Notes: a model not told the origin generated them from the letters alone. A DNA stretch of 64,000 bases from an uncultured Chloroflexia bacterium (GCA_963819655.1 CAWFXA010000002.1:416001-480000), one strand, 5' to 3'. Shown: positions 165-19,649, numbered from the stretch's first letter. Made by a program: numbers and translations.

Positions 165-280
165 GGACGGCTGATGCTGGACCGACGCGTCGTTGCGCCC
201 TCCGCCCCTCGCTCACGCACGTCTGAGTGCGCTCGCTCAGGTACTCGGGCGCGCCTAGCCTCGGTCCGCCTGAGCCGCCC
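165..280. repeat. Structured intergenic hairpin element, copy 1
   Basis: Core GGACCGA..CGTTGCGCCC..TCGCTCA-CGCAC/GTGCG-CTCGCTC..GGGCGCGCCTAG..TCGGTCC (179-267) is shared with 12441-12531 and 19500-19634. Confidence 0.8.
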
Positions 281-361
281 TGGCTGGGGCCGCGATACGG
301 TCCGGGCGCGGCGTTGGGCGCTGCGCGCGAACCGCCTTGCGACCCCTGACAATTCGGGCTG

Positions 362-1345
362 ATGGAGCAACTTCTCGCGCTCGAGATGGTGCGCGTCACG
401 GAGGCCGCGGCGATCGAATCGGCGCGGTTCATGGGACGGGGCGCCAAGGACGAGGCGGACGCCGCGGCCACGACCGCGATGCGCAAGACCATGGACGAGA
501 TCGAGTTCGCCGGCCGCATCGTCATCGGCGAGGGCGAGCGCGACGAGGCGCCGATGCTGTACATCGGGGAGCGGGTCGGCAAGACGGGCGCGGACCGTGC
601 CGAAGTCCCGGCCATCGACATCGCGGTCGATCCCCTCGAGGGCACGAACCTCGTCGCGCACGGCCAGGCCGGCGCGATCACCGTGCTCTGCGCCAGTGAA
701 GCCGGCGGGCTCACCAACGCGCCCGACACGTACATGGACAAGCTGTGTGTCGGCCCGGTCGTCGCCGGCAAGGTCGATATCCGTGTCAGCCCGACAGAGA
801 ACCTCGGGCGCATCGCCGAGGCGCTCGGCCGCAAGGTGTCGGACATCACGGTCGTCATCCTCGAGCGTCCGCGCCACGATGACCTCATCGCGGAAGTCCG
901 CGCCGCCGGCGCCCGGATCAAGCTCATCGGCGACGGCGACCTGTCCGCGGCGATCTCGTGTGCCGTGTCCGGCACGGGCGTCCACGCGGTGATGGGTATC
1001 GGTGGTGCGCCCGAAGGCGTCATCACCGCAGGCGCGCTGCGCTGCCTCGGCGGCGAGATCCAGGCGCGCTTCCGCTACCGGTCGCCCGAGGAGCGCCAGC
1101 GCGGCGCGGCGATGGGACACGGCGATGAGGACCGGGTCTACCACACGGAGGACCTCGCGCCGGGCGAGAACCTCGTGTTCGCAGCCACCGGCGTGACCAC
1201 CGGCGACCTTCTCCAGGGGGTCCGGTTCTTCGGCGGTGGGGCGCGCACCCACTCGCTGGTCATGGCGTACCAGGCCAAACAGGTCCGGTTCGTCGATACC
1301 GTCCACATGTTCGATCGCGACAGCCCGCCCCGGGTCCGACTCTGA
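362..1345 (+). CDS. glpX: Class II fructose-1,6-bisphosphatase
   Basis: [31 protein letters not shown] and GIGGAPEGV motifs. Confidence 0.97.
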
Positions 1346-2382
1346 CGGCCGCGCCTCCAGCGAGGCTCGGCCTCGTCCTCGGTCTGCTCGCGTGCGTCGT
1401 CGTCGCCGGGCTGGCTCGGTGGATCGGCGGCGCCCTCCAGCTCGGGCTCGAGACCGCCATCGCGCTGGCGCTGGGCCTCCTCCTGGGGGCGTCCGCCGGG
1501 ATCCGGGCCCGGCTGCTGCCTGGCGCCACGCTTGCAGCGCGCTTCGCGCTCCGCATCGGGATCACCCTGCTCGGGGCCCGACTCACACTCGGCCAGCTCC
1601 TGGCGACGGGCGCCGGGAGCGTCGTCGCGATCGCCCTGACCGTCACGGCAGCCCTGCTGCTTGGGACTTGGCTGGCGCGGCGGCTTGGCATCGTCCCGCC
1701 GCTGTCCGCGCTGATCACGGTCGGCATGGCCATCTGCGGCAACTCCGCGATCCTCGCGCTGTCGCCGATCATCGGCGCGCGCCACCGGGAGACCGCGTAC
1801 GCCGTGTCTGCGATCACGCTCTTCGGGCTGATGGGTGTGCTGGCGCTGCCGGTGCTCGGGCGGCTGATGGGGCTCGGCGACGCGGCCTTCGGGATGTGGG
1901 CGGGCCTGGCGGTCAACGACACCGCCCAGGTCGTCGCGACGGGCTACGCCTACTCGGCGCCGGCCGGGGACGTCGCCACGGTCGTCAAGCTGACGCGCAA
2001 CCTGGCCATCCTGCCCGTGCTGCTCGGGGCGACGTGGTGGGCGGCCCGTTCCCTCGATCGGCCCGGCGAGGCGTCTGAGCCGACATCGACGCCCGCCATG
2101 GTCGCGCGCGCCGTCCCATGGTTCGTCGTCGGCTTCGTGGTCTTCGCGGCGTTGCGCTCGGCGGGCCTTCTGGACGCTGCGCTGCCGACCGGCGGCACAC
2201 TCGCCGACCTGTGCTCGACGCTCGCGGCGCTGCTGATCCTCGTCGCCCTCGCCGGGGTGGGTCTGGCGACCGATGTCCGGGCGATGCTCGGGGTCGGGGC
2301 GCGTCCGTTCGTGCTCGGCGCCTCGATCTGGATCGCTATCGGCCTGCTCGGGCTGGGCGTCGCACGGGTCTACCATGGCTAG
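1342..2382 (+). CDS. YeiH/putative sulfate exporter family membrane protein (probable CTG start)
   Basis: [10 protein letters not shown] and [10 protein letters not shown]...VKLTRN motifs. The hydrophobic frame stays open upstream of the listed ATG (1726) back to CTG 1342, which overlaps the glpX stop (CTGA). Confidence 0.8.
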
Positions 2383-2386
2383 GCCC

Positions 2387-3793
2387 ATGGACGTGGAGTT
2401 GGTCCTGACCCCCGGGCTCGGCAACGGCGCGTTCCTGATCGCAGCCGGGCGGGACGCCGTCGTGGTCGATCCGCCGCGCGATGCCTGGCGCGTGATGGCC
2501 GCGGCGGAGGCGCGCGGCTGGCATGTCACGCATGTGCTCGAGACGCACGTCCACAACGACTACCTGTCGGGCGCGCTCGAGCTGCGCTCGGCCGTCGGGG
2601 CGGAGATCCTCGCCCCGGCGCGCGGCCGGTACGCGTTCGCCCATCGACCGATGGACGATACCGACGCACTCGAGATCGATGGGCTCCGGCTGACGGCCCG
2701 GGCCACGCCCGGTCATACACCGGAGCACCTCGCCTGGGAGGTGTGGACCGACGGCGACACGGGACCGGCCGCCATCGCCACTGGCGGCAGCCTGCTCGTC
2801 GGGAGCGCGGGAAGGACCGACCTGCTCGGCGCGGACCAGACGGACGACCTGACCCGGGCGCAGTTCCACTCGCTCCGCGCCCTCGCGATGCTGCCGGACG
2901 ACGTGGCGGTCCTGCCGACCCATGGCGCGGGCAGCTTCTGCTCGGTCGGGCCGGCCGATGCGGCACGCATGACGACGATCGGACGGGAACGCCGGTCAAA
3001 CCCGCTGCTGCGGCTCGCCGACGAGACCGCCTTCCGGGCCGCGCTGCTGGACGGCCTCGGGCCGTATCCCAGGTACTACGCCGAGATGGGGCCGGTCAAT
3101 CGCGCCGGGCCAACCGTGGTCGGCCGGCTCGCGCAGCCCCCCGAGATCGGACCCGATGCGGTCAGGACCGCGGTCGCCGGCGGGGCGCACATCGTCGATG
3201 GCCGATCGCGCGAGGCGTTCGCAGCCGGTCACATCGGGGGCTCGCTGAACATCGAGCTGGCCGACTCGTTCGCGTCGTACGTGGGGTGGTTCGTGCCGTT
3301 CGGCGCGGCGGTGGTGCTCATCCTCCCGGACCCGTTCGAGGACGCGCTGGTTGAGGCGACCACCCAGCTGTTCCGGATCGGTTACGACCGGATCGTCGGC
3401 GTGTTGGCCGGTGGCGTCGAGGCCTGGGGCGATGCCGGCGGGACCTTGGCCTCATATCCGGTGGTGTCAGCGGCGGCAGCGGCAGACGAGCTCGCGAACG
3501 GGGCGCGGCCCAATCTGCTCGACGTCCGCTACCCGCACGAGTGGCGCGACGACGGCGTTGTCCCGGGCTCGCTCGAGCTGTCGATCGGCGACCTCGCGGA
3601 TCGGCTCGACACGTTGCCGCGCGACCGGCCGATCACCGTCATGTGCAAGAGCGGCTCGCGGGCGTCGATCGCGGCCAGCATGCTCGACGCCGCCGGTTTC
3701 GATGTCCGCCTGGTCTCCGTCGGTGGCGCCCCGGACATTTTGGCGTCGCTCGGTGCGGCCGGACACGGGGCGGCGCCCACGCCGACGCGATGA
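2387..3793 (+). CDS. MBL-fold hydrolase (persulfide dioxygenase-like) with tandem rhodanese domains
   Basis: ETHVHNDY, TPGHTPEH and PTHGAGS motifs; C-terminal rhodanese CKSGSRA. Confidence 0.9.
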   Translation: MDVELVLTPGLGNGAFLIAAGRDAVVVDPPRDAWRVMAAAEARGWHVTHVLETHVHNDYLSGALELRSAVGAEILAPARGRYAFAHRPMDDTDALEIDGLRLTARATPGHTPEHLAWEVWTDGDTGPAAIATGGSLLVGSAGRTDLLGADQTDDLTRAQFHSLRALAMLPDDVAVLPTHGAGSFCSVGPADAARMTTIGRERRSNPLLRLADETAFRAALLDGLGPYPRYYAEMGPVNRAGPTVVGRLAQPPEIGPDAVRTAVAGGAHIVDGRSREAFAAGHIGGSLNIELADSFASYVGWFVPFGAAVVLILPDPFEDALVEATTQLFRIGYDRIVGVLAGGVEAWGDAGGTLASYPVVSAAAAADELANGARPNLLDVRYPHEWRDDGVVPGSLELSIGDLADRLDTLPRDRPITVMCKSGSRASIAASMLDAAGFDVRLVSVGGAPDILASLGAAGHGAAPTPTR

Positions 3794-5071
3794 CCACGCT
3801 CAAGACCACGCTTGGCGAAGCCAGCGCCCGGGCCCTCGACGCCGCCGATCCGTTGGCCGGCTGGCGCGAGCGATTCCACATGCCGGCGGGCGCCGGTGGG
3901 CGGCCGAAGGCGTATCTGGCGGGGATGTCGCTCGGTGCCCAACCGGTCGGGGCGCGCGAGGCGGTCGAGCGTGAGCTCGATCGCTGGGCAGAGCTTGGGG
4001 TCGACGCCTGGTTCGGTGCGCGCGAGGGCTGGCTCGATGGCCGACGGGGCCATCCGGGAGATGGCGGCCGGCGTCGTCGGTGCTCGGCCGGACGAGGTCG
4101 CAACGGCGAACACCCTGACCGTCAACCTGCATCTGCTGCTCGCGGGCTTCTATCGTCCCGAGGGACGTCGCACCGCGATCCTGATCGACGCGCCGACCTT
4201 CCCGTCCGATCGGTACGCGGTCGACTCGCACCTGCGGCACCACGGTCTCGATCCCGCCGACGAGCTCGTTATCGTCCGCCCGCGCGAGGGCGAGGCCACC
4301 CTCCGCACCGAGGACCTGGAGGGCGCGATCCACGACAACCGCGACCGGCTCGCACTTGCGTTGCTCGCGGGTGTCAACTACGCAACCGGACAGCTCCAGC
4401 CGATCGAGCGTCTGACGGCCGCCGTCCACGCCGCGGGCGCGGTCGCGCTGTGGGATCTCGCGCACGCTGCCGGGAACGTGCCCCTCGCCCTCCATGACGC
4501 CGATGTCGACGCCGCTGCCTGGTGCACCTACAAGTACCTGAACAGCGGCCCGGGTGCGCTCGGCCAGTTCTTCGTCCACGAGAGGCACGGCGAGGCCGCG
4601 TCGGCCCGTCGACTGACCGGCTGGTGGGGCAACGACGAAGCGACGCGGTTCGAGATGGCCGAGACGATCGACCCCGCACGGGGTGCCGGTGGATGGCGGA
4701 TCTCGACGCCACCGATCCTGTCGCTCGCCCCGATCGGGGTCTCGCTCGCGATGTTCGATGCGGTCGGGATGGCGGCCCTGCGGGAGCGGTCGGTGGCTTT
4801 GACCGCGTATCTCGAGGCGGCCATCGACGCCCTTGCACCCGACGCTGAGATCATCACGCCACGGGACCCCACGGCGCGCGGAGCGCAGCTGTCGGTGCGC
4901 GTCCCGGACGCGCCGGCTCGCCTGGCGGCCATCGAGGCGCTCGACGTCGTGGCGGACTTCCGCGAACCGGATATCGTCCGTCTGGCACCGGTCCCGCTGT
5001 ACTCGACCTACTACGACGCCTGGCGCGCCGCGCGAGCGCTGGCCGATACGACCCGAAGGAGCCCCGGATGA
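3790..5071 (+). CDS. kynU: Kynureninase, with a single-base frameshift at ~4039
   Basis: N-terminus DAADPLAGWRERF..YLAGMSLG in one frame; LTVNLHLL, WDLAHAAGNVP and PLP-Lys motif WCTYKYLNSGPG in the next. Join reads GAT-G-GCC. Confidence 0.88.
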
Positions 5072-6063
5072 CCAAGATCGGCTACGCGGCGATGATGGAG
5101 CAGTTCCACCCGACCGACCTCCTCGACTGGTGCGCCCAGGCGGAGGCGGCGGGCTTCGAGGCCGGCTTCATGGTCTCGGAGCATTTCCATCCGTGGACCC
5201 CGCAGCAGGGCCAGAGCGGCTTCGCCTGGGCGTTCATGGGCGCGCTCGGACTGCGGACGTCATTGCGGTTCGGGACGGCGGTCACGTGCCCCGGTTTCCG
5301 CTACCACCCGGCAGTCATCGCGCATGCCGCGGCCACGCTCGGCGCGATGTACCCGGGTCGCTTCTACCTCGGTCTGGGCGCCGGCGAGGCGCTCAACGAG
5401 CACGTCATCGCGCCGGTATGGCCGGAGGTGCCGATCCGTAGCGCGATGATGTTCGAGGCGATCGAGGTCATCAGCAAGCTGTTCAGCGGTGACGTCGTGC
5501 GCCACGACGGCAAGTACTTCACGCTCGAGCGGGCCAAGCTCTACACCAGGCCGCCGGACGACCAGCGCGTGCCGATCTATGTCGCCACCGCCGGGCCGAT
5601 CAACGCGAAGAAGACCGGCAAGTTCGCCGACGGACTCATCACGGTCGGTGCGGCCGACGACAAGATGAAGATGATCTGGGGCAAGTTCGAGGAGGGCCGC
5701 AGCGAAGTCGGCAAGGACGGGCCCGGCCCCAAGTTCCTCCAGCTCCACATCTCCTGGGCGCCCACCGACGACGAGGCGATGGAGAACGCCCTGGTCGAAT
5801 GGCCCAACGGCGGCATGGCGTTCTTCCCCAAGCAGGACATCAAGAACCCCGAGGACTTCGCCGGGATAGCCAAGCTGGTGCGCGCCGAGGACTTCACGAA
5901 CCGGGTGATGATCAGCGGCGACCTCGAGGAGCATTGCCGGCATATCCAGCACTACGTCGACATGGGCTACGACGAGATCCACCTCCACAACGTGGGGCGC
6001 AACCAGGCCGAGTTCATCGAGACGTTCGGGCGGGAGGTCCTACCCAACCTCAGGCTCGACTGA
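5068..6063 (+). CDS. F420-dependent LLM-class oxidoreductase (G6PDH-like family)
   Basis: EQFHP, SEHFHPW, TAVTCP..RYHPA and GLGAGEALNE motifs. Confidence 0.88.
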   Translation: MTKIGYAAMMEQFHPTDLLDWCAQAEAAGFEAGFMVSEHFHPWTPQQGQSGFAWAFMGALGLRTSLRFGTAVTCPGFRYHPAVIAHAAATLGAMYPGRFYLGLGAGEALNEHVIAPVWPEVPIRSAMMFEAIEVISKLFSGDVVRHDGKYFTLERAKLYTRPPDDQRVPIYVATAGPINAKKTGKFADGLITVGAADDKMKMIWGKFEEGRSEVGKDGPGPKFLQLHISWAPTDDEAMENALVEWPNGGMAFFPKQDIKNPEDFAGIAKLVRAEDFTNRVMISGDLEEHCRHIQHYVDMGYDEIHLHNVGRNQAEFIETFGREVLPNLRLD

Positions 6064-6697
6064 CCCCTTCGCCTGTCACGGGCCGCCACGTTCGTCGGGC
6101 TGGGTCCCATACCCCCACGACGCGGACGCTGCCTGGCGGCTCCCGCGCGGCGGCCCGCCGGCGTGCGGTCTCCACTGTCTCCGTCCGGCCCGGCGCCACG
6201 AGGCGCGGCGCGAGGTCGGCGAGCGGGGCGAGGACGAACAGCCGCTCACCGAGGTACCGATGCGGGACCTCGAGGCGTTTGGCGGCCTTGGCCGGGTCGA
6301 CGTTCGCGTCAACGGAGCGCGCCGCCAGGGACCGCTCGACGTCGATCCGATGGCGCCCGAACACCAGCAGGTCGAGATCGAGCTCGCGGGGACCCCAGCG
6401 CCGTCGCCGGCGACGGCCGGCGGCTCGCTCGATCGTCTTGAGCCGGCCGAGGATGCCGAGGGCTGCGTCCGCGGGAGCGCGGTCGTCGTAGCGGATGTCG
6501 GCTGCGACGGTGGCGTTGCGGAACTCTGGCTGGTCCGTCACGCCCCAGGGCACGGTGGCGTAGAGCCGCGAGACCCCGGCGACTCGCACGCCGGGCAGAT
6601 CCGCGATCGCCTCGACCGCCGACGCCAGGGTTCGGGCCGGATCGCCGACGTTTGATCCGAGGCCGATATAGGCACGGGCCGTTCGGCGGGCTGTCAT
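6050..6697 (-). CDS. folK: 2-amino-4-hydroxy-6-hydroxymethyldihydropteridine diphosphokinase
   Basis: AYIGLGSNVGD, QPEFRN, RWGPRELDLDLL and LEVPH...RLFVLAPL motifs. Confidence 0.95.
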   Translation of the reverse strand: MTARRTARAYIGLGSNVGDPARTLASAVEAIADLPGVRVAGVSRLYATVPWGVTDQPEFRNATVAADIRYDDRAPADAALGILGRLKTIERAAGRRRRRRWGPRELDLDLLVFGRHRIDVERSLAARSVDANVDPAKAAKRLEVPHRYLGERLFVLAPLADLAPRLVAPGRTETVETARRRAAAREPPGSVRVVGVWDPARRTWRPVTGEGVSRA

Positions 6698-6806
6698 CGA
6701 CGGCACCTTACTATCCGGCCATGGAGGCCGGACCGACTCCCACCTTACGCCGGCTGCGCCGCCCGACCGCCTCGCTCCGCGTCCGCGTCCCGGCTGGGGG
6801 CTCGAC

Positions 6807-7862
6807 ATGACCGAGGTCGATGTCGCCGTCCTCCACGCGGAGCCAGATGCTGACGCGGGTCCGCTGACGCGCGCCACCGCGGCGGCTCGGCTGGACACCG
6901 CCGAGCGGCATGTACGCGGATTCCTCGAGGCCGGAGCGACTCGGGCACGGATCCACGCTGGCCCGCCTGACGGACGTCCGTTCGGGTCGCGGCTGCGCGA
7001 CGTGGTCGCGGAGCTCGGGGATGGTGGCTTGATCGTCCTCGGGTCCGGGGCCGTGCCGCTTGCGACCCCGTCGGACCGTCGCGATCTCGTCACCGCGGCG
7101 GCCGCCGACGGGCCCCGAGCCCTCACGAACAACCGCTACTCGGCGGACGTGATCGCGGTGGCGCAGGCACGCCGAGCGCTCGGGACCGTCCCGGATGTGC
7201 CGACCGACAACGCGCTCCCGCGCTGGCTCGAGGAGCACGCCGGCGTGCCCGTCGACGACCGGCGCAGACGAACCCGACTCGGGATCGACATCGACGGACC
7301 ACTCGACCTCGTCCTGCTCGGCGGTCGATGGCGGTCATGGCTCCAGGGTGCCGACACGGCCCGCGTGCGCGCGATCCTCGATGCCGTCGGATCCGTCGTC
7401 GCGGACCCCGCCGCCGAGCTCGTCGTGACGGGACGGGTGTCCGCCACGAACCTTGCCTGGCTGGAGGCACGGACCGCGTCGCGGACCCGGGCACTCATCG
7501 AGGAGCGCGGCCTGCGGACCCGCCGCGCCGACCAGCGACCGGCGGCGTCGGTGCTCGGCGCGCTGCTGGACCGCGATGGTCCCGAGTCGCTCGGCGAGAC
7601 GCTCGCGCAGCTCGCGGACGCCGCGATCGTGGACACGCGGGTATTGCTCGCACACCGGTTCGGCGCGGATGAGGCCGGTTGGCCGGTGGCGGAGGACCGG
7701 TTCGCATCAGATCTCCTCTTGACCGCGAGCATCGAGGACGCCTGGCTGCGCGCCCTCACGGCGTCCGCGGTGCATGCGCCGATCCCGGTCTTGCTCGGCG
7801 GGCACACGCTCGTGGGCCCGGGCCTGCGCTTCGCCCTCGGACGCGCGCCCGGACGCCGATGA
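6807..7862 (+). CDS. CofC/MobA-like nucleotidyltransferase-fold protein of unknown function
   Basis: GSGAVPLA, NNRYSAD, DNALP and DIDGPLDL resemble CofC/DUF2064-type motifs; extra C-terminal domain. Confidence 0.5.
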   Translation: MTEVDVAVLHAEPDADAGPLTRATAAARLDTAERHVRGFLEAGATRARIHAGPPDGRPFGSRLRDVVAELGDGGLIVLGSGAVPLATPSDRRDLVTAAAADGPRALTNNRYSADVIAVAQARRALGTVPDVPTDNALPRWLEEHAGVPVDDRRRRTRLGIDIDGPLDLVLLGGRWRSWLQGADTARVRAILDAVGSVVADPAAELVVTGRVSATNLAWLEARTASRTRALIEERGLRTRRADQRPAASVLGALLDRDGPESLGETLAQLADAAIVDTRVLLAHRFGADEAGWPVAEDRFASDLLLTASIEDAWLRALTASAVHAPIPVLLGGHTLVGPGLRFALGRAPGRR

Positions 7863-7887
7863 CGAACGCGCACGTAGCGTCGGCACC

Positions 7888-9099: not shown

Positions 9100-9373
9100 G
9101 GCGAATGCCGTATTGCCCCGACGGGGCCTTCGGCGTCAGGCTGACCGTGGTCGTCGCACGACCGCACCGTCACGGGGGGCGCGACGTGAACCTGCACGCG
9201 CGCTCGGCGCGTCGCGCCCCCCGCTCCGGTGCCCACGAAGCCATCGGCACGGTCCCCCAGCGTGCCCGGATCCGGATCAGCGCTCCTCCTCTGCCGATCC
9301 GGCGGCTCCCACGGCGAGGCGTCCCCCAGCGCCTCGCCGACCCCTGTCGTGACCCGTTCGAAGGCGTGCCCGC

Positions 9374-9382
9374 TGATAGAAT
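9374..9382 (+). promoter_or_regulatory. Extended -10 promoter (TGATAGAAT) upstream of the nuo operon
   Basis: TGnTAGAAT about 70 nt before the nuoA TTG; SD-like GAAGGGAG precedes the TTG. Confidence 0.6.
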
Positions 9383-9451
9383 GGCCGTGCGTGGAGGCTC
9401 CACGGAGCCACCCCTGCCCGCCGCCTCCGACCGGTCCCGAAGGGAGTTCGC

Positions 9452-9817: not shown

Positions 9818-10563
9818 AGACGACACCGGATGGCCTCGGGGCCGGCCCCTCGGACGAGACCGCGATCTCGTCGGACGTCCCGGCCCAGCCCGGCCTCCCG
9901 GCGACCCGCCCGTCCGACGCTGTCGCGAATCCGATCGTCGTGCGGAACTCGCTCTGGCAGGCGGCGGATCCGTCCGCGTACGACGGCGGCCGCCCCACCG
10001 ACATCACCCACCTCGCGGAGCTCGAGGCGAGTGGCGCGGGCCGGCGCGACGATGCGCGCTGGAGTGGCGTCCTCGAGGTCATCCCCACCAAGGCCGACTA
10101 CGTGCTCGACCTCATCCGGATGAACAGCCTGTGGCCACTCCTGTCGGGGCTCGCGTGCTGCGCGATCGAGATGATGTCGGCGGCGACCTCCAAGAACGAC
10201 ATGGACCGGTGGGGCATGTTCCCGTTCCGGGCGAGCCCGCGTCAGGCCGACGTGCTCATCGTCGCCGGCACGCTGACGACGAAGATGGCCGGGCCACTGG
10301 TCCGCCTCTGGGAGCAGATGCCGGAGCCGAAGTGGTGCGTCGCGATGGGCGACTGCACGTGCTCGGGTGGCCGGTACAAGCGGAGCTACTCGACGGTCGA
10401 GGGGATCGATCGGGTCATGCCGGTGGACGTCTACGTCCCGGGCTGCCCGCCCCGGCCAGAGGGCCTCATCTACGGGATGATGAAGCTCCAGCAGCTGGTC
10501 AAGGACCGTCGCGGTCATTGGCCGGAGCGAGCCATCGGCCCGACCGTCCCCGAGCAGGTCTGA
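9808..10563 (+). CDS. nuoB: NADH-quinone oxidoreductase subunit B (N-terminal extension)
   Basis: [21 protein letters not shown] and [13 protein letters not shown] motifs. Confidence 0.96.
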
Positions 10564-10565
10564 CC

Positions 10566-11114
10566 GTGGACCGAGCCTTCAAGGCCCGCCTCGAGCGGCG
10601 GTTCGGCGAGCAGCTGACGGGCCCCATCCGGCAGCGCCACGACGAGACGGAGATCCGGATCGGGCCGGGCGACGTGACCCAGGTCATCACCGCGCTCCAC
10701 GACGAGCCGGAGTTCGGCTTCGAATTCCTGGCCGACCTGGCCGGGGTGGATACGGGCGACGTCATGCAGGTCGTGTACCACCTGTGGAGCGCGACCACGC
10801 CCGACTGGCTTCGGGTCATCGCCGACGGCCTGCCGCGCGAGGACCCGCGCGTCCCGTCGGTGACTTTCATGTGGAAGGGCGCCGAGTGGATGGAACGCGA
10901 GGCCTACGACATGTTCGGCATCACGTTCGAAGGCAATCGCGACCTGCGCCGCATCTACCTCCCTCCCGACTACACGAGCTTCCCTCTCCGAAAGGACTTC
11001 TACCTTCCGGACGACGCGGCCCGTTCCCCGGGCGCGGGCGTCCGACCCATGGAACGGACGCACACCCCACGCGAGACCCCGGCGACGGCGAACGTCCGTC
11101 GGGGCGGTGCGTGA
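10566..11114 (+). CDS. nuoC: NADH-quinone oxidoreductase subunit C
   Basis: DLAGVD, WMEREAYDMFGI.F.G and FPLRKDF motifs. Confidence 0.95.
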   Translation: MDRAFKARLERRFGEQLTGPIRQRHDETEIRIGPGDVTQVITALHDEPEFGFEFLADLAGVDTGDVMQVVYHLWSATTPDWLRVIADGLPREDPRVPSVTFMWKGAEWMEREAYDMFGITFEGNRDLRRIYLPPDYTSFPLRKDFYLPDDAARSPGAGVRPMERTHTPRETPATANVRRGGA

Positions 11115-11142
11115 CCTCCCGCGCGAACGGCAAGGACCTGCG

Positions 11143-12408
<1,266 letters not shown>

Positions 12409-12553
12409 CGTGCCGATCGACTGTCGGCGACCCGTGGGACGGCCGATGCCGGCGTTGCCGCCTCCGCTGCAGTCGCTCACGTAGCTCGGGCTACGCTCGC
12501 TCCGCTGCTCGGCGGCGCCTTGGCCTCGGCTCGGGTGCCGACGAGTCGGCACG
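12409..12553. repeat. Structured intergenic hairpin element, copy 2
   Basis: Outer stems CGTGCCGA/TCGGCACG and ACCCG/CGGGT; core GGCCGA..GGCGTTGCCGCC..TCGCTCA-CGTAGC/GCTACG-CTCGCTC..GGCGGCGCCTTG..TCGGCT. Confidence 0.85.
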
Positions 12554-12586
12554 AGCCGTTCGACAGGGCGCCGGGAAGACGGCCGG

Positions 12587-13936
12587 ATGACTGTGATCGG
12601 GCGGTCGTGGAGCAGGCTGACGCTGCCGGGGAAGGTCGTGTTCACGGTCGTCCCGCTATTGCTGCTGCTGACGATCGGGGCGATCGCGCTGATCGTGATC
12701 TTCGGCCAGGCGATCGTCGACATCCTCGTCGCCAACCTGCCGATCGTCCGCTTCGTCGTCGCCGTCACGGTCATCCTGATCGCGACCGTCCCGACCGCGT
12801 TCCTGATCATCTACATGGAGATGAAGATCATCGCTCTGATGAATCTTCGGATCGGGCCGGACCGGGTCGGGCCGTTCGGGTCGCTCCTGTCAACGGTCCA
12901 CGGGTTGAAGGTCCTCATGAAGGAGGACTTCACGCCGACCGGCGCGGATTCGCTGGTCTTCACGTGGGCGCCGGTCGTCGTCTACCTCGCGAGCGTCCTG
13001 TCGCTGCTCGTCATCCCGTTCGCACCCGGCTTGTTCGGGTATGACCTCAATCTCGGGCTGCTGTATTTCTTCGCGATCGGCGGCCTGGCCGTGGTCGGCC
13101 TGCTGATGGCCGGCTGGTCGAGCTACAACAAGTACTCGCTCCTGGGCGGATTGCGCGCGGCGGCCCAGGTCATCAGCTACGAGATCCCGCTGACGCTGTC
13201 GGTCGTCGGCCTGATGCTCCTGGCCGGGACGATGAGCCTGAACACGCTCGTCGAGAACCAGACCGGCTGGTTCACCGACTGGTACATCTTCCAGCAGCCG
13301 CTCGGGGCTCTCATCTTCTTCATCGCGGCTACCGCCGAGGCGAACCGCACCCCGTTCGACCTGACCGAGGCCGACTCGGAGATCGTCGCCGGGTTCGCGA
13401 CCGAGTACTCGGGCATGCGGTTCGGGTTCTTCTTCTTTGCCGAGTACGTGAACGTGTTCATCGTCTCGGCCCTGTTCGTCACGCTCTTCCTGGGTGGCTG
13501 GAATGCGCCGTTCCCGTGGCCATGGCCGGTCGAGCTGAACATCGATCCAGCGTCGTTCAACATCGGCCTGCTGTTCATCCTCGGCCTGGTGCCGGTCGTC
13601 CTGACGCTGTTGTTCGGCGCGCCCTTCTACCTGCTGAACTCGCGCATCAGATGGTGGCAGGCGCTGCTCATCGGGTTCGTTCTTGCGAACCTGTTCATCG
13701 TCACGCTGCTCGGCGCGTGGGCGTACCTCGGACTGCCGTGGGTCGCCGGTATCCTCTGGTTCATGCTCAAGACCTACACGCTCGTGTTCACGTTCGTGTG
13801 GATGCGCGGCACCTTGCCCCGGGTCCGGATCGACCAGCTGATGGACTTCGCGTGGAAGTGGCTGCTGCCGGTGTCGCTGCTCAACCTGTTCGTGACGGCC
13901 GGCGCGATCGTCGTCATCAAGGGACTGGGTCGATGA
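12587..13936 (+). CDS. nuoH: NADH-quinone oxidoreductase subunit H (with extra hydrophobic segments)
   Basis: RIGPDRVGPFG, NKYSLLGGLRAAAQVISYE, NRTPFDL.EA..E and TLPRVRIDQLM motifs. Confidence 0.96.
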   Translation: MTVIGRSWSRLTLPGKVVFTVVPLLLLLTIGAIALIVIFGQAIVDILVANLPIVRFVVAVTVILIATVPTAFLIIYMEMKIIALMNLRIGPDRVGPFGSLLSTVHGLKVLMKEDFTPTGADSLVFTWAPVVVYLASVLSLLVIPFAPGLFGYDLNLGLLYFFAIGGLAVVGLLMAGWSSYNKYSLLGGLRAAAQVISYEIPLTLSVVGLMLLAGTMSLNTLVENQTGWFTDWYIFQQPLGALIFFIAATAEANRTPFDLTEADSEIVAGFATEYSGMRFGFFFFAEYVNVFIVSALFVTLFLGGWNAPFPWPWPVELNIDPASFNIGLLFILGLVPVVLTLLFGAPFYLLNSRIRWWQALLIGFVLANLFIVTLLGAWAYLGLPWVAGILWFMLKTYTLVFTFVWMRGTLPRVRIDQLMDFAWKWLLPVSLLNLFVTAGAIVVIKGLGR

Positions 13937-14610
13937 GCTTCGTCCCCGGCCTCGGCATCGTGAAGGGAATGGCCCTGACCCTTCGGCGCTTCTTCGAGCC
14001 GAAGGTCACGATCATGTATCCGGAGGTGCGGCTCGACGTCCCGCACAAGTTCCGCGGCCGTCTGCAGCTGCTCTACGACGAGTGGGGCACGCTCAAGTGC
14101 GAGACCTGCTTCCAGTGCGCCCAGGCGTGTCCGATCGAGTGTATCGACATGGGCGGCATCGACACGCGCGGCCGCTACCACGTCCACTGGGGAGCGCCCG
14201 AGACCTATGGCGAGCGACGCGAGGAATCGGCGATGCGCCGCTCGGGCCGGCCCGTCCCGGACCCCGCCTATCGGCCGTTCGAGCCGATCGCGATGGGCGA
14301 GGTAGACCGCGTCCTCGAGGAGTACGACCACGACCCGGCGCGGATGCTCGACATCCTCGAGGCGACCCAGGACGCTTACGGCTATCTCCCCGTAGCTGCC
14401 CTCAAGCGCATCAGCCACGCGACCGGCGCCTGGTACGCGATGATCTACGGTACCGCCAGCTACTACGCCCACCTGCGGTTTGAGCCGGCGAGCGCCAGCG
14501 AGCAGGCAGCGGCGGTCGCCGAGCATCGGCCAGCCGAGGGGACATACCTGTCTGCCCTCGGCGCGGCGCTCGAGGGAGGCGGTCGCCCGGGCGCGCCCGC
14601 CCGCGCCTGA
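13933..14610 (+). CDS. nuoI: Fusion of the NuoI N-terminal half (one CxxCxxCxxxCP) and the NuoE N-terminal helical domain
   Basis: VTIMYPE..FRGR..KCETCFQCAQACP, then NuoE-like ILEATQDAYGYLP..ISHATG..IYGTASYY. No second ferredoxin motif and no NuoE 2Fe-2S cysteines. Confidence 0.85.
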   Translation: MSFVPGLGIVKGMALTLRRFFEPKVTIMYPEVRLDVPHKFRGRLQLLYDEWGTLKCETCFQCAQACPIECIDMGGIDTRGRYHVHWGAPETYGERREESAMRRSGRPVPDPAYRPFEPIAMGEVDRVLEEYDHDPARMLDILEATQDAYGYLPVAALKRISHATGAWYAMIYGTASYYAHLRFEPASASEQAAAVAEHRPAEGTYLSALGAALEGGGRPGAPARA

Positions 14611-14612
14611 CG

Positions 14613-15908
14613 ATGGTGACCCTGCTCAAGACCCCGGCCAGTTGGCCGCGGATCCTGCTGGCCCGAGCCGGCGAGAAGGACCCCACCGACCTCGATGCCG
14701 CCGTCGCTGCCGGGGCCTTCGACGGCCTGCGGCGCGCGATCCGCGACCTCGGCGGGGCCGCCACGATCGCGACCATCGCGGCCTCCGGCCTGCGCGGGCG
14801 TGGCGGCGCGGGCTACCCGACCGGTGACAAATGGCGGACGGCGGCAGACACCGATGCCGACCGCCGGTACGTCGTCGCCAACGGCTACGGCGCCGACCCG
14901 GCGTCGCACACCGATCGAACGCTCATGCTGCGCGACCCGTTCGCGGTCATCGAAGGGACCGCCATCGCGGCCAGCGCCATCGGTGCGACCGAGGCCTTCA
15001 TCGCGGTCCGCGCCGAGGACGCCGACGTCGTCGCCCGGTTGTCTGCGGCGATCGGCGCGGCGACCGATGCAGGCTTCATCGGCGCCGACGTCCTCGGGTC
15101 GGGCCGTGACCTGTGGCTCACGGTCCGCCCGGTGCAGGGCGCATACATGCTCGGCGAGGAGACGGTCCTGCTCAAGGCGCTCGAAGGCAAGCGCGGCCAG
15201 CCCGAGCAGAAGCCACCGCATCCCGCCACTGTCGGCCTGTACGAGCGCCCGACGGTCGTCAACAACGTCCAGACGCTGGCCGCCGTGCCGTGGATCGTGC
15301 GCTCGGGCGCCGACGCCTACCGCGCGACCGGTTCGACCAGGTCGTCGGGCACCGTCCTCGTGCAGCTCCGGGCGCCCGGCAAGCAGGGCGTCGCCGAGGT
15401 CCCGCTGGGCACGCCGCTTCGCGACATCGTGAAGCTCGGCGGGAAGATGCCGGCCGGCCGGACGCTCCAGGCGGTGCTCATCGGCGGGCCGTCCGGCGGC
15501 CTGCTCCCGCCCGATGCGCTCGATACCCCGTACGACTTCGGGACGCTCCGCGAGGCGGGCGCCCATCTCGGCTCGGGCTCCGTTGTCGCGGTCGACGACC
15601 GTACGGACCTGCTCGAGCTGGTCGGGGTGCTGATGCGGTTCTGCGCGAACGAGGCATGCGGCAAGTCGATCCCCTGCCGCATCGGGACGAAGCGGCTGGC
15701 CGAGATCGTCGCCCGTCGCGAGGACGGGCTCCTCCGCCCGGTCGACACCCAGCTGGCGGCCGACCTGGCACACGACATCGTCGAGTCCGCCCTGTGCGAC
15801 CACGAGCGGCTCGCGACCCTCCCGCTCACGAGCGGGATGCGATACTTCGGGTCCGACTTCGACCCCGCCAACCGACCCCCGCCGGTCGCGACCGAGGCCG
15901 CCCGATGA
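14613..15908 (+). CDS. nuoF: NuoF-like flavoprotein subunit, degenerate
   Basis: SGLRGRGGAGYPTG.KW, GAY..GEET.LL..LEGKRG and PTVVNNV.T motifs; the NADEGEP motif and one N3 Cys are altered. Confidence 0.85.
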   Translation: MVTLLKTPASWPRILLARAGEKDPTDLDAAVAAGAFDGLRRAIRDLGGAATIATIAASGLRGRGGAGYPTGDKWRTAADTDADRRYVVANGYGADPASHTDRTLMLRDPFAVIEGTAIAASAIGATEAFIAVRAEDADVVARLSAAIGAATDAGFIGADVLGSGRDLWLTVRPVQGAYMLGEETVLLKALEGKRGQPEQKPPHPATVGLYERPTVVNNVQTLAAVPWIVRSGADAYRATGSTRSSGTVLVQLRAPGKQGVAEVPLGTPLRDIVKLGGKMPAGRTLQAVLIGGPSGGLLPPDALDTPYDFGTLREAGAHLGSGSVVAVDDRTDLLELVGVLMRFCANEACGKSIPCRIGTKRLAEIVARREDGLLRPVDTQLAADLAHDIVESALCDHERLATLPLTSGMRYFGSDFDPANRPPPVATEAAR

Positions 15909-18553
15909 CCGACACCCTGGCCCGCCCAGAGCGCCTGCCCTCCGGGGCCCCGACCGAGACGTCGGCGTCGCCGGACTCGCTCGCCGAGCGCCTGCTCGAC
16001 ACCCAGGCGCCACAGCGACCGCAGTCGACTCCGCGCATCCGGATCGAGGTCGATGGTCGCGTCGTCGAGGGGTTCGAGGGCCAGACGATCCTCGAGGTCT
16101 GCCGCGACAACGGCATCGAGATCCCGACGCTGTGCTACGAGCCAAAGCTGCCCGGGTTCGGGGCATGCCGGATGTGCGTCGTCGAGGTCGAAGGCGAGGA
16201 ACACCCGCCGATCTCGTGCTCGCGCTCGTGCGAGGACGGGATGAAGGTCGAAACGCAAACAGAGGAGATCCGTCGCCTGCGCCGCACCAACCTCGAGCTG
16301 ATCTTCTCCGACCACAACGCCTACTGCCTGCCGCCCTGCCAGAACAAGTGCCCGAGCCACATCGACATCCCGGGCTTCCTCAAGGCGAATGCCGAGGGCG
16401 ACTGGCGGGAGAGCACCCGCATCTTCAAGCGGACGATCCCCTTCCCGTCGGTGCTCGGGCGGGTCTGCCCGGCGCCGTGCGAGGAGCACTGCCGGCGCGA
16501 CGAGGTCGACGAGGCGATCGCGATCCGCGACACCCACCGCTACGCGGGCGACCAGGTCCTCAAGTCGATGCTCGACGAGGACGTCGATCCGCCCGTGCCG
16601 TTCGAGCGCCAGGCTCCGTCCGGGCGACGGGCCGCCGTCATCGGCTCGGGCCCGGCCGGCATGGCCGCGGCGTACTACCTGCTCATCGCCGGTCACGACG
16701 TCACGGTCTTCGAGCGCGACCCGTCGCCGGGCGGCATGCTCCGCTACGGCATCCCGCAGTACCGGCTGCCGAAGGTCGAGGTGCTCGAGGCCGAGTACGA
16801 GTCGATCTCGCGGCTCGGCGGCACGGTCGTCTGCAACGCCGGTCTGGGCCGAGACTTCACGCTCGACGACCTGACGAACCAGGGCTTCGATTCGGTCATC
16901 GTGGCGATCGGCTGCTACGACACGAACAAGCTCGGGATCCCCAACGAGGACGCCGACGGCGTCATCGACGGCCTCGAATACCTGCGAACGGCGACGCTCG
17001 GGCTGCCGTATCCGGGCCACGTCGGCAAGCGCGTCGTGGTGATCGGCGGCGGCTTCACCTCGATGGACTGCTCGCGGACGTCGATCCGCCAGGGCGCGGC
17101 CGAGGTCACGCTCGTGTACCGCCGCGACATGAAGGACATGCCCGCGGCCGACGAGGTCCACGAGGCGATCGAGGAAGGCGTCACCACGATCTTCCAGGCG
17201 GGCCCGACGCGCGTCATCACGAACCCCAAGACCGGAGCCGTGACCGGCGTCGAGTTCATCCGGATGCAGCTCGGCGAGCCGGACGCCTCCGGCCGGCGGC
17301 GCCCGGAGCCGGCATCCGGCACCGAATTCACGATCCCCTGCGATCGCGTGCTGCTGGCCATCGGTCAGGGTCCCGAGCTCGACTGGATCGGGACGCCCGG
17401 CAATGAGGGGCCCGAGGCGACGAAGCAGCGTCGTCTCAAGGCGGACGCGGTCACGTTCTGGACGGGCCGGCCCGGCGTCTTCGGCAGCGGCGATGTGCGG
17501 ATCGGCGCGGCCACGGTCGTCGAGGCGGTCGCAGAAGGCCGGCGCGCGGCCTACGCCGTGGACGCCTACATGAAGGGCATGGACCTCGACGCCATCCGCA
17601 CGCGCCAGACGCTGGCCGAGCCGCAGCCCGAGTTCCTCTCGATCGTGCCGTTCACCGGCGAGATCAAGGAGCCGCGCTATCGGATGACGCCACTGCCCGC
17701 GGAGGCGCGCAACGACAGCTACATCGAATACGAGCTGCCGTATACGCGCGAGGCGGCGATGGCGGAATCGACTCGCTGCCTGCAGTGCACGTGTGAGGCG
17801 ATCGGGTTCTGCGACCTGCGCCGGCTCGGGATCGAGTACGGCACGACCCTCCAGACGCTCGAGCCGCAGTACCACCAAGGCGCCGGCTATCGGAGCGTGA
17901 CCGAGAACCGGTTCACCGGCATCAACCACGACTACATCCGCGACGACTCCCATGCGTTCATCCTGCGCGAGCCGTCGCGCTGCATCGACTGCGGGCGCTG
18001 CGCGAACGTGTGCGCCGAGGTCGTCGGGGCGGCGTGCTACGACTTCATGCGCATCGGCTTCGACACGCTGGTCACGACGCCGCTCGACATGAGCCTCAAC
18101 GACACCCCGTGCGTGTCGTGCGGTCGCTGCGCGGAGACCTGCCCGACCGGCGCCCTGATGCCCAAGCCGCGCATCCTCGAGAAGTACGAGGTCGACGAGA
18201 GCCGCTGCATCCTGTGCGGCATCTGCGTCGACGCCTGCCCATACGACGCGCTGCGCGACGGTGCCGACATCGAGCTCGCCCACACCGGCCGCTCGGAGCC
18301 GACGATCGACCTCATGGCGCTCGCCGCGATCGACCGCGAGACCGAGGTGACCTACATCCAGCGCGAGCGCGACTGGCTCACCCGGGCGCGTGCCGAAGGC
18401 CGCGTGGTCGACCAGTCGCGACTGCTGCCGATGCTGCCCCCGGCGATCGATGGCGTGCCGAGCAACGGCGGACGCTCGAACGGGAACGGCCACGGTCACG
18501 GTCACGACGGTCATGGGGCGGTCGCCGCGCTCGGCCCTGGCCGGCACGAGTAG
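15905..18553 (+). CDS. NuoG-N/GltD-type FAD-NAD(P)H Fe-S flavoprotein fused to the NuoI C-terminal half
   Basis: 2Fe-2S domain (IPTLC..GACRMC..C); GltD-like PCQNKCP/LGRVCPAPCE; GSGPAG; GGGFTSMD..VYRR; two ferredoxin motifs; then YEVDESRCILCGICVDACPYDAL..GADIELA. Confidence 0.88.
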   Translation: MTDTLARPERLPSGAPTETSASPDSLAERLLDTQAPQRPQSTPRIRIEVDGRVVEGFEGQTILEVCRDNGIEIPTLCYEPKLPGFGACRMCVVEVEGEEHPPISCSRSCEDGMKVETQTEEIRRLRRTNLELIFSDHNAYCLPPCQNKCPSHIDIPGFLKANAEGDWRESTRIFKRTIPFPSVLGRVCPAPCEEHCRRDEVDEAIAIRDTHRYAGDQVLKSMLDEDVDPPVPFERQAPSGRRAAVIGSGPAGMAAAYYLLIAGHDVTVFERDPSPGGMLRYGIPQYRLPKVEVLEAEYESISRLGGTVVCNAGLGRDFTLDDLTNQGFDSVIVAIGCYDTNKLGIPNEDADGVIDGLEYLRTATLGLPYPGHVGKRVVVIGGGFTSMDCSRTSIRQGAAEVTLVYRRDMKDMPAADEVHEAIEEGVTTIFQAGPTRVITNPKTGAVTGVEFIRMQLGEPDASGRRRPEPASGTEFTIPCDRVLLAIGQGPELDWIGTPGNEGPEATKQRRLKADAVTFWTGRPGVFGSGDVRIGAATVVEAVAEGRRAAYAVDAYMKGMDLDAIRTRQTLAEPQPEFLSIVPFTGEIKEPRYRMTPLPAEARNDSYIEYELPYTREAAMAESTRCLQCTCEAIGFCDLRRLGIEYGTTLQTLEPQYHQGAGYRSVTENRFTGINHDYIRDDSHAFILREPSRCIDCGRCANVCAEVVGAACYDFMRIGFDTLVTTPLDMSLNDTPCVSCGRCAETCPTGALMPKPRILEKYEVDESRCILCGICVDACPYDALRDGADIELAHTGRSEPTIDLMALAAIDRETEVTYIQRERDWLTRARAEGRVVDQSRLLPMLPPAIDGVPSNGGRSNGNGHGHGHDGHGAVAALGPGRHE

Positions 18554-18555
18554 AC

Positions 18556-19149
18556 GTGCGCGCGAAGCTGCCCCAGATCATCTTCGCGCTCCTGATCATG
18601 GGCGCAGTCCTCGGCATCGCTGCCCTCCTGGTCGTCGTCCTCCACCAGGACTGGGAGGACGCGCTCCTGTGGATCCTCGGAGTCGTGATGCTGGGCGCGG
18701 GGCTCCTGGTCGTGACGATGCGCGACATCATCCGCTGCGGCCTGGCCATGATCGTCTGCTTCCTCGCGCTGGCCGGCATCTATGTCCTGATGGGCGTCCC
18801 GCTCCTCGGGGCGGCGCAGGTCATCGTGTACATCGGCGCGATCAGCGTGCTGGTCCTGTTCGCCATCATGCTGACCCAGACCAAGGACGCCCCGAGCCGG
18901 CTCGTGTTCCAGACCCAGGCCGGTCCGGCGGCGATCGCGGCGGTCGTGGTCGCGATCCTCATCGCCCTCGCCGTGGGCGCCACGGACTGGCATGAGGTCG
19001 CCCGCCGGGCGCGCCTGAGCACGACCGAGATGGCGCGGGTCCTGTTCGAGCAGTTCGTGTTCCCGTTCGAGATCGTCAGCGTGCTGCTGCTGGCCGCCGT
19101 GATCGGCGGCGTGTTCCTGGCCAAGCGCGAGCCGGGCGGTCCGTCGTGA
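18556..19149 (+). CDS. nuoJ: NADH-quinone oxidoreductase subunit J
   Basis: [20 protein letters not shown] and [15 protein letters not shown] motifs. Confidence 0.94.
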
Positions 19150-19463
19150 GCGACAGCCTCGACACCTACCTGATCCTGTCCGGGATCCTCTTCGCGATCG
19201 GCACGTTCGGCTTCCTCGCGCGGCGCAACGCGATCAGCATGCTCATGTCGATCGAGCTGATGCTCAACGCGGTCAACCTGACGATCGTGGCTTTCGGCCT
19301 GTTCGGGCCCCGCCCCGACGCGATCGCCCAGGGCGCGGTGTTCGCGCTGATGGTCATGGCGGTCGCTGCGGCTGAGGCGACGGTCGGGCTGGCGATCGTC
19401 ATCGCGATCTACCGCAACAAGAGGACTCCGCTAGTCGATGAGTACGACTCCATGAGGCAGTGA
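19146..19463 (+). CDS. nuoK: NADH-quinone oxidoreductase subunit K
   Basis: [20 protein letters not shown] and [11 protein letters not shown] motifs. Confidence 0.96.
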
Positions 19464-19485
19464 TGGGGCTGCGGCGGACAGTTCG

Positions 19486-19649
19486 GCGTGCCACCGGGCA
19501 GCCGATGGCGGCGTTGCCGACTGCGGGCGATCGCTCACGCATACCGCCCCGAGGCCTGAGGCGACGCCCCACGAGCCATCAGCCCGAGGGTTCGTGCGCT
19601 CGCTCCCGTCCTCGTCGGCGCCTTGCCCTCGGCTCCCCCGCTGACACGC
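19486..19649. repeat. Structured intergenic hairpin element, copy 3 (expanded apical loop)
   Basis: AGCCGA..GGCGTTGCCGAC..TCGCTCA-CGCA...TGCG-CTCGCTC..GTCGGCGCCTTG..TCGGCT; outer stem GCGTG/CACGC. Confidence 0.8.

Follow-up and report, generated by a model that had tools for sequence, protein, structure and literature searches.

What is the long hairpin that recurs behind stop codons in this stretch of Chloroflexota DNA, and on which strand, and in which nucleic acid, is it read? The stretch (here, the window) comprises 64,000 nucleotides (nt) from an uncultured Chloroflexia bacterium (GCA_963819655.1 CAWFXA010000002.1:416001-480000, which is C2:416001-480000 of genome G000 in our numbering); the assembly amounts to 3.49 Mb in three contigs, with 69% G+C and 91% completeness. 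A preliminary description, made from the sequence alone, had pointed out three copies of a hairpin with covarying stems and an invariant internal loop and had proposed a REP/MITE-like mobile hairpin or a cis-acting mRNA processing or stability element. We refer to this ~120-base hairpin repeat as element A and to a second, shorter repeat family as element B. Element A is a new family of small palindromic intergenic repeats, a known kind of element, and it is lineage-specific to one family of soil Chloroflexota (recorded as Candidatus Limnocylindrales or Chloroflexia). The feature most in need of explanation is that its centre folds on one fixed strand.

An nhmmer profile, built from seven copies and then from all matches, was searched genome-wide and placed element A at 18 sites in the 3.49-Mb genome (E<=7e-10; the next match had E=0.21). 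Seventeen of these are full copies and one is truncated (C2:1615649); contig 2 holds 16 of the 18, contig 3 the other two, and contig 1 has none. A covariance model built from 14 short complete copies (R1) recovered 17 copies in the genome. The three copies of the preliminary description were found by the covariance model where it had placed them, all on the plus strand, and the stems (CGCCC/GGGCG, CCGCC/GGCGG, and CCGAC/GTCGG; apical CGCAC/GTGCG, CGTAGC/GCTACG, and CGCA/TGCG) and the TCGCTCA/CTCGCTC letters are present as quoted. No further copy was found in the window with the covariance model at E<=1e-6; the count of three applies to the window, against a total of 18 in the genome and of hundreds in relatives. 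Within the genus, R1 matched all 24 other genomes searched, with 1 to 35 matches each, and none of 16 sister-family genomes searched alongside them. In an even draw from the order, element A was present in 84 of 108 genomes of the family and in 20 of its 27 genera, and in none of 42 genomes of the sister family, which are ~1.1 Mb in size; within the family, genera g1, g5, g7, and g9 are rich in copies, and genus g10 had no match in three genomes. As at most 24 candidates were scored per genome in this draw, its copy counts per genome are to be read as "at least." An exact-pattern scan of one genome per species gave at least 122 loci, 62 of which fit the whole-element profile. The labels among the matches listed were Candidatus Limnocylindrales, uncultured Chloroflexia, and Chloroflexi/Chloroflexota, together with one Dormiibacterota and one Eisenbacteria.

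Each copy of element A folds into an imperfect hairpin ~115-125 nt long, in which the centre hardly varies and the arms change between sites while remaining paired. RNAalifold predicted 27 pairs from 14 copies, 18 of them with compensatory change. The covariation holds in a larger alignment of 105 matches (99 distinct rows, from 23 genomes), in which 22 of the 27 pairs show change on both sides and 91.4% of cells are standard pairs, compared with 72.5% in column shuffles (0 of 500 as high) and only 23-49% in controls in which the partner was slid; as the rows were aligned to the model and come from related copies, these figures are biased towards structure, and the signal is large even so. The consensus of the 99 copies reads ..cggcc.atg.c.GCGTTG.cg.cT.CGc....TCgCTCACGcac-loop-gTgCGCTCGCTc..gTgCTCg.cg.CGCCTTg.cct.., and on either side of it another 10-15 nt are paired inside each copy and differ between sites. 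The cores outlined in the preliminary description are therefore present as parts of a longer hairpin whose variable flanks pair too, and the extra 45 nt of the third copy are a separate repeat. Minimum-free-energy folds with 35-nt flanks over-extend in DNA of 69% G+C (median, 174 nt) and were not used for boundaries. The centre is two-fold symmetric, as both arms (and both strands) read CTCGCTCA around a two-pair G-C step. Because both arms read CTCGCTCA, the partners in the centre are C.A, U.C, and C.U on the plus strand; on the complementary strand they are U.G, G.A, and A.G, in agreement with the preliminary description. The remaining internal loops likewise place pyrimidines opposite pyrimidines on the plus strand.

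The opposite strand had been suggested as the folded form, and this suggestion is borne out by an advantage of 9-10 kcal/mol. With RNA parameters, copies in sense orientation to their host genes (n=47) have mean folding energies of -68.0 kcal/mol on the plus strand and -77.3 kcal/mol on the minus strand (minus better by 9.3), and antisense copies (n=15) have means of -68.9 and -78.6 kcal/mol (minus better by 9.7); the gap is alike in the two classes (Mann-Whitney p=0.60). For the second window copy (12420-12552), the minus strand reaches -74.7 kcal/mol (RNA z -4.17, with 0 of 200 shuffles as good; DNA z -2.75), and the plus strand reaches -69.3 kcal/mol (RNA z -1.19, with 21 of 200 shuffles as good; DNA z -1.38). 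The spectrum of mismatches agrees: where the variable pairs are non-Watson-Crick on the plus strand, A.C outnumbers G.T (97 versus 53) and pyrimidine-pyrimidine outnumbers purine-purine (98 versus 31), both in sense copies (60 versus 34 and 49 versus 22, respectively) and in antisense copies (21 versus 6 and 27 versus 7), although some mismatches recur in the same columns by inheritance, which makes the spectrum a property of the family consensus and not of ~100 independent events. The better-folding strand is set by element A and not by the direction of transcription, and in about three quarters of the copies the mRNA carries the worse-folding strand. Transcription-linked mutation bias was considered as the source of the asymmetry and rejected, because sense and antisense copies are biased in the same direction. 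Assignment of replichores from GC skew on the three contigs gave |skew| values mostly below 0.02 and no clear turning points.

Copies of element A lie directly 3' of stop codons, between co-directional genes that are mostly core genes. Among 101 unique copies, 63 are sense, 21 antisense, four between convergent genes, and one between divergent genes, with 12 unclear. Counted by site (43 sites), 24 are sense-only, nine antisense-only, five mixed, and five other; at the nuoK site, one or two calls of mixed orientation result from errors of the open reading frame (ORF) caller. The common orientation and the preceding TGA that had been reported hold for the window only, since antisense copies are frequent elsewhere and TAG and TAA also occur as stop codons before copies. 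In sense copies, the stop codon mostly lies ~13-35 nt ahead of the CGTTG motif, which places it at the foot of the hairpin or within it, and the copy behind petB has the last five codons of that gene inside the hairpin. All 18 copies in G000 are in spacers, with one partial exception at rplE. Written as upstream>downstream gene and with Pfam names, the sense copies of G000 are found at purH>glpX, nuoD>nuoH, nuoK>nuoL, petB>petD-like, rpsI>OTCase gene, rplQ>, secY>adk, the rplE region, recA>recX, and lexA>dnaB, and one precedes an amidohydrolase gene. The antisense copies are found at atpA>atpG, H+-PPase>uppP, rplA>rplJ/L, lon>, and aconitase>MFS; of the remaining copies, one lies behind a tRNA-like 3' end and one is unclear. 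The 58 copies of genomes G016 and G024 add rplL>rpoB, rpsJ>rplC, infB, lepA, obg, rsfS, dnaE, dnaX, holA, dinB, cysS, purF>purM, folD, fhs, ppk, corA, and others.

The upstream neighbour belongs to a core class (translation, replication, recombination, respiration, ATP, proteostasis, or tRNA) in 14 of the 18 G000 copies, compared with 6 of 30 random junctions (Fisher p=1.8e-4). For this control, the upstream gene of each co-directional junction was called in 20 random 7-kb regions (30 genes), and the six are genes of translation, replication, or recombination. A codon-adaptation proxy (1,756 ORFs called, 17-gene reference set) gave low scores even to ribosomal protein genes. The partial exception at rplE is a degenerate copy (C2:1665354) with no stop codon after rplE, the frame of which continues for ~60 codons through the element. 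This frame (C2:1664684-1665514) adds ~60 residues after the L5 domains, and this extension could be a genuine C-terminal tail that the repeat encodes or an artefact of the assembly. In G000 (C2:1615600-1615770, ending after the apical stem), G016 (C1:46366-46795), and G024 (C3:101543), a copy found 3' of a tadA-like deaminase gene immediately follows a tRNA-like 3' end (GGTTCGAATCC...CCGCCA). A different, small conserved hairpin, GCGCYCGAGAGGGCGCGCC, with GAGAGG in its loop, lies directly before the truA start in most genomes of the family; its loop probably holds the ribosome-binding site of truA.

How these spacers are occupied in relatives bears on the mobility of the element. At the nuoK-nuoL spacer, 10 of 30 genus genomes carry element A, all in sense orientation; five have a ~50-nt spacer with the same flanks and a short GCGCGC palindrome, without the hairpin; and in 15 the nuoK stop codon overlaps or nearly abuts the nuoL start and there is no element. 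The hairpin-less ~50-nt spacer is either a pre-insertion target or a post-deletion scar. The five loci with this spacer are L038, L044, L046, L050, and L061, and L044 has a GCGC-TGAC-GCGC mini-hairpin. At the rplQ spacer, 5 of 30 family genomes, from five genera, are filled (three sense, two antisense), arm fragments remain as relics at three further loci (L123, L129, and L133), and within the genus four of seven loci are filled. The rplQ sense copies of genera g1 and g3 have the outer arm sequence in common, and this insertion is therefore older than both genera. When copies of relatives were mapped onto G000, many orthologous sites proved to be filled; more than 10 sites filled in relatives are empty in G000 (~0-16 nt instead), and two G000-empty sites hold element B instead. 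At the lon and H+-PPase sites, the G024 copies have the opposite orientation to those of G000 and the arms do not align; the G005 copy at the PPase site is ~85% identical to that of G000 over the whole copy; and at the purH site the G016 copy is antisense. Because the same spacers are filled, empty, or occupied by relics in relatives, some of them in opposite orientation, element A is, or was, mobile and is dispensable.

Within a genome, the identity between paralogous copies has a median of 58-60%, and the best pair reaches 71% in G000 and 86% in G016, so that the copies in G000 are old, with no recent burst, and some younger copies exist elsewhere. In the most similar pairs, the likeness spans ~90-125 nt. 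Where genes had overlapped (GTGA), an insertion leaves both a stop region and a start region in place, and these share ~5 of 8 letters. A pre-existing hairpin as the target of insertion would account for some sites only: it fits nuoK-nuoL, with its GCGCGC palindrome, whereas the empty rplQ and rpsJ sites have no palindrome. Head-to-tail tandem pairs of element A occur in G024 (C3:161947-162184), G016 (C2:2225842-2226082), and G009 (C51:11430-11649). Those of G024 and G016 stand at the rpsI>OTCase gene junction, and in G016 a GAGGCAGTTCGG motif lies between the two copies.

On the right, the motif (A/G)AGGCAGTTCG directly follows the hairpin in 22 of 99 copies (background, 3% per scanned window; reverse strand, 1-2 of 99) and occurs at 8 or more unrelated sites. 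Its AGG lies 8-10 nt before the next start in sense copies (petD-like, nuoH, and nuoL). Because the motif is also carried by one antisense copy, it is a property of a subfamily of element A rather than of the host spacer; to the left of some copies stands a related motif, GGCGGTCA(A/G)TTCGG. Use of the AGG as ribosome-binding site of the downstream gene would readily account for the surplus of sense copies. In the third window copy, the additional 45 nt are element B, which occupies the apical loop. In element B (~50-60 nt), three CGAGG motifs surround an inner stem that covaries (CYGAGGC..GCCATCRG). Element B has 18 matches in the genome at E<0.01, on all three contigs, and no match in Rfam for the two loci scanned. 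Three matches lie inside element A copies (window 19538-19598, C2:1669998-1670058, and C3:893443-893502, the one on contig 3 being inverted relative to element A); the ~15 standalone places, such as C2:538279-538340 and C3:363522-363583, are in spacers, in either orientation, with site-specific closing stems. Nine relatives have element A at the nuoK-nuoL spacer with no B insert there, so that element B arrived later than element A in this copy.

The coordinates of the features around the three window copies are collected in Table 1. The genes flanking each copy are on the plus strand. The first copy separates purH (stop codon at 160-162) from glpX (start at 362, named by Pfam); the name purH was taken from orthologous loci, and the 53-amino-acid fragment in the window has no Pfam match. 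By Pfam, the second copy lies between nuoD (11107-12408) and nuoH (12587-13936), and the third lies between nuoK and nuoL (19705-21696).

Table 1. Element A copies in the window and features adjoining the third copy
Feature	Position	Strand	Score (covariance model)	Remarks
Element A copy 1	165..283	+	88.2 bits	Sense; invariant centre 209-238
Element A copy 2	12427..12547	+	96.1 bits	Sense; centre 12473-12502
Element A copy 3	19486..19650	+	78.4 bits	Sense; second repeat nested in apical loop
Element B nested in copy 3	19538..19598	+		Replaces apical loop; core CCGAGG..CCGAGGCGACGC..GCGAGCCATCGG..CCCGAGGATTC
Left flank motif GGCGGACAGTTCGGCG of copy 3	19473..19488	+		Same spacer in relatives; similar form elsewhere
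Right flank of copy 3	19650..19707	+		Three degenerate GG.AGTTCG-like repeats, the last directly before the nuoL GTG start at 19705
nuoK	19146..19463	+		Gene whose stop codon precedes copy 3

The reading that we prefer, at a probability of roughly 0.6, is that element A is a palindromic repeat akin in kind to the ERIC, REP, and Correia elements, which has spread behind stop codons, is passive in mRNA, and has a centre that is read by a protein. The unit is a DNA stretch of ~115-125 bp that forms a long, imperfect hairpin by pairing of its two arms; it has spread to the first few bases after the stop codons of co-directional, mostly core housekeeping genes, and its near-invariant centre is presumably the part under selection. 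On the complementary strand, TGAGCGAG could self-pair by means of two G-C pairs with tandem G.A and G.U pairs on either side, for which the d(ATGAGCGAAT) duplex is an analogue. As the direction of the host genes makes no difference to which strand folds better, the element is most likely read as single-stranded DNA (ssDNA), or as a cruciform, by a protein that moves or maintains it, and the invariant symmetric centre is taken as the recognition site of this candidate protein on the folded ssDNA. After transcription, the ~60-bp hairpin would probably act as a passive intercistronic barrier or processing site, with the upstream cistron stabilised and the downstream cistron uncoupled. The position makes it plausible that the hairpin acts in mRNA as a barrier, processing site, or uncoupler; at no single site is this role needed, as the patchy occupancy of junctions, even within the genus, indicates that no copy is indispensable. 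In a subset of sense copies, the right flank may supply a Shine-Dalgarno-like AGG for the next gene, and the better survival of sense insertions between genes that once overlapped would follow from this.

A bolder version of this reading, which we regard as doubtful, holds that element A is an undescribed ssDNA hairpin element that homes behind the stop codons of the most transcribed genes by means of an enzyme outside the HUH, TnpB, and IS110 groups, or of a host process, and nests in hairpin tips (element A in local spacers, element B in element A). In part it would have been adopted by the host as a portable "hairpin plus ribosome-binding site" that replaces the overlap of stop and start codons between core genes, and its G.A-zippered, two-fold symmetric centre would be a new motif for protein recognition on folded DNA or RNA.

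Several results weigh against the preferred reading. The linked HUH/RAYT transposase suggested by the preliminary description was not found: a search for Y1_Tnp (RAYT/IS200 HUH) gave no match in the genome itself or in any of 111 family genomes from 49 genera, with a control that matched 6 of 14 known genomes. TnpB and IS110 were likewise absent from the genome itself, other transposase families being outside the search, and Y2_Tnp was absent from five genomes in a search that matched no control genome either. IS91-type elements have a target preference for GTTC; this motif is found by the right end in only 22 of 99 copies, without abutting it, and the Y2_Tnp result just given, with its silent control, is the corresponding enzyme search. 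The only GIY-YIG match in this 91%-complete genome is a 658-amino-acid frame (UvrC-sized) that does not adjoin a copy. Comparisons of filled and empty sites allowed no clean target-site duplication and no conserved termini to be defined. Even between paralogues that are 81-86% identical inside, the last 10-15 bp at the outer end of each arm differ from site to site; they are complementary within each copy and, in two of the three closest paralogue pairs, lie beyond the point where the likeness ends. Simple copy-and-paste does not predict ends that are site-specific yet complementary. Template-switch correction between arms is a known mechanism. The statistics on orientation, mismatches, and energies are overstated, since the copies are related by descent, and the enrichment beside core genes depends on manual classing and an approximate ORF caller. 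The metatranscriptome contigs, from four runs, are short, represent mixed relatives at 88-95% identity, and give neither ends nor strand; one RNA contig joins 19541 to 19594 via seven other letters and corresponds to a relative's copy without the B insert. Finally, a host function would explain equally well a centre that is near-invariant over the whole family and the many sites whose orientation is kept across species.

Among known families, the build and habit of element A are closest to those of ERIC, with REP, Correia, and NTS repeats as functional analogues. ERIC is an imperfect palindrome of ~125 bp with a central part that is best conserved, and longer ERIC variants with internal insertions exist, which the three element A copies with nested B resemble. 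Element A shares with ERIC the ~125-bp palindrome, the conserved centre, the location in transcribed intergenic DNA, and the occurrence in either orientation; the likeness is one of kind only, and no kinship in sequence is expected. Unlike ERIC, element A is from a different phylum with 69% G+C and has site-specific arms, a two-fold symmetric centre with G.A-rich loops on one strand, and copies concentrated at the junctions of core housekeeping operons. Integron attC sites have conserved outer R''/R' boxes and a variable centre, lie behind cassette genes, and are served by the intI integrase; element A, in contrast, is conserved in the centre and not at the ends, and its neighbours are housekeeping operons. 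MITEs have conserved terminal inverted repeats and target-site duplications; element A resembles MITEs and Correia elements as a non-autonomous hairpin unit without its own transposase, but its termini are its least conserved part and no clean duplication is seen. Conserved terminal inverted repeats were indeed not found in the copies, the outer 10-15 bp of which pair within a copy and cannot be aligned between copies. According to the accessible part of PMC10969869, ERIC/IRU elements have tens to hundreds of copies in lineage-variable numbers, are usually intergenic, at 3' gene ends and in either orientation, and are occasionally intragenic, with reported effects on mRNA decay via RNase E; the same part describes Correia elements (CREE) of Neisseria as 100-160 bp long, adjoining genes, and forming a long RNA hairpin that is cut by RNase III, and Rickettsia palindromic elements (RPE) as able to lie in frame inside genes. 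The degenerate element A copy read through by rplE recalls RPE, with the difference that it is only one of 18 copies in G000 and the rest are extragenic.

A placement of element A within the REP-RAYT or the Ssn/NTS (SRM) hairpin systems is very improbable. It would account for a hairpin repeat with an asymmetric conserved part in intergenic spacers, and the accessible part of PMC3733652 describes REP/BIME sequences as GC-rich extragenic palindromes with proposed roles in mRNA stabilisation, termination, and supercoiling; as far as that part goes, REPs and element A also share the location inside operons and behind stop codons, both orientations, and orthologous sites conserved in relatives. 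REPs are, however, 20-40 bp long and have a GTAG or CGTC tag at one end (same source), whereas element A, at ~115-125 nt, is three to five times longer, has no GTAG or CGTC tag at either end of the 99-copy consensus, and has no Y1 transposase in the 111 genomes. Ssn/NTS repeats (dRS3), as presented in the accessible part of PMC11893778 (Chenal et al. 2025), are hairpins with non-palindromic conserved letters that are read on ssDNA by the GIY-YIG nuclease SsnA, and an oriented hairpin read as ssDNA by a dedicated protein is our favoured working model for the invariant centre of element A. The Ssn/NTS motif differs, however, and is ~30 nt long rather than ~120 nt; no match to the SRM pattern HGTCWY..RNCYNB was seen on either strand of the 101 copies (mean of 0.06 in shuffles), and the sole GIY-YIG match is the long frame mentioned above and not a small ssnA-like gene. 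Against Rfam release 15 at gathering thresholds, the whole window matched only a full-length transfer-messenger RNA gene at 62835-63210 (RF00023, 120.9 bits), and three element loci at E<=10 gave chance-level matches of at most 20 bits against cutoffs of 40-88. Of the two outcomes that the preliminary description had named as refuting it, a match to a described Rfam family and a loss of covariation with more copies, neither came about. Element A is placed outside the REP-RAYT, Ssn, and Rfam-listed families because their defining features were looked for and not found. The "REP/MITE-like mobile hairpin" of the preliminary description is thus apt in kind, for a dispersed noncoding hairpin with presence and absence, relics, and opposite orientations, and fails in the particulars of transposase, length, and termini. 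A limited literature search found no description of such repeats in this lineage, which does not show that none exists.

If element A were instead a host cis-regulatory RNA module, its hairpin would be selected to set the relative expression of cistrons, as a 3'-exonuclease barrier, an RNase III/E site, a partial terminator, or an uncoupler, and would be re-used at many junctions. We consider this unlikely, for all that the copies lie within operons just after stop codons, that the upstream gene is usually the one needed in larger amounts (recA>recX, atpA>atpG, rpsI>OTCase gene, rplQ>truA, H+-PPase>uppP, and lexA>dnaB), that many sites keep one orientation across species around a centre conserved family-wide, and that sense-only sites exceed antisense-only sites by 24 to 9, with a right-flank AGG at ribosome-binding distance (8-10 nt) from the next start. 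The reported effects of ERIC and Correia elements on mRNA fate, via RNase E and RNase III (accessible part of PMC10969869), also fit such a module. It would not be expected to show patchy occupancy within a genus (10 of 30 genomes at nuoK-nuoL, four of seven at rplQ), both orientations at one junction in different species, or copies behind a tRNA gene or between convergent genes. Nor would it be expected that ~three quarters of the copies transcribe the worse-folding strand, with its pyrimidine-pyrimidine and A.C mismatches, in an asymmetry independent of the direction of transcription.

That independence would also suit a chromosomal DNA site, that is, a cruciform or ssDNA hairpin bound by a topoisomerase, a nucleoid protein, or a replication or repair factor behind heavily transcribed genes. 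The proposed binding of gyrase to REP/BIME is a precedent, a symmetric centre that reads CTCGCTCA on both strands would suit a dimeric binder, and the copies are enriched beside core, presumably heavily transcribed genes. This explanation nevertheless strikes us as quite improbable, since genomes of one genus carry anything from 1 to 35 or more copies, some genera of the family have no copy (g10, none in three genomes), orthologous sites are often empty, and no candidate protein has been identified. Hardly credible, lastly, is a short protein-coding module, as the "bridge ORFs" of the preliminary description might imply. The three window copies do have a common frame over the core, and the rplE frame runs for ~60 codons through one copy. 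However, one-base indels are scattered at different places in different copies, both orientations occur, the substitutions are compensatory between the arms and not periodic, and most copies follow the upstream stop codon; because the indels differ between copies, the shared frame is a by-product of conserved DNA.

Small palindromic repeats are known mainly from Proteobacteria, and their enzymes (RAYT and SsnA) were found decades after the repeats. Element A offers a test case from a widespread uncultured soil class, with covariance model matches of ~100 bits, no known mobiliser found in 111 genomes, a preference for the stop-codon spacers of core genes, including junctions that otherwise overlap, and an invariant symmetric centre that folds well on one strand only, whatever the direction of transcription. 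For annotation, the model flags ~10-35 intergenic hairpins per genome that are not to be called ORFs, and element A accounts for split operon junctions as well as for the apparent C-terminal extension of at least one gene product (rplE). Any partner protein that exists should come to light in a phylogenetic profile of genera with and without the element.

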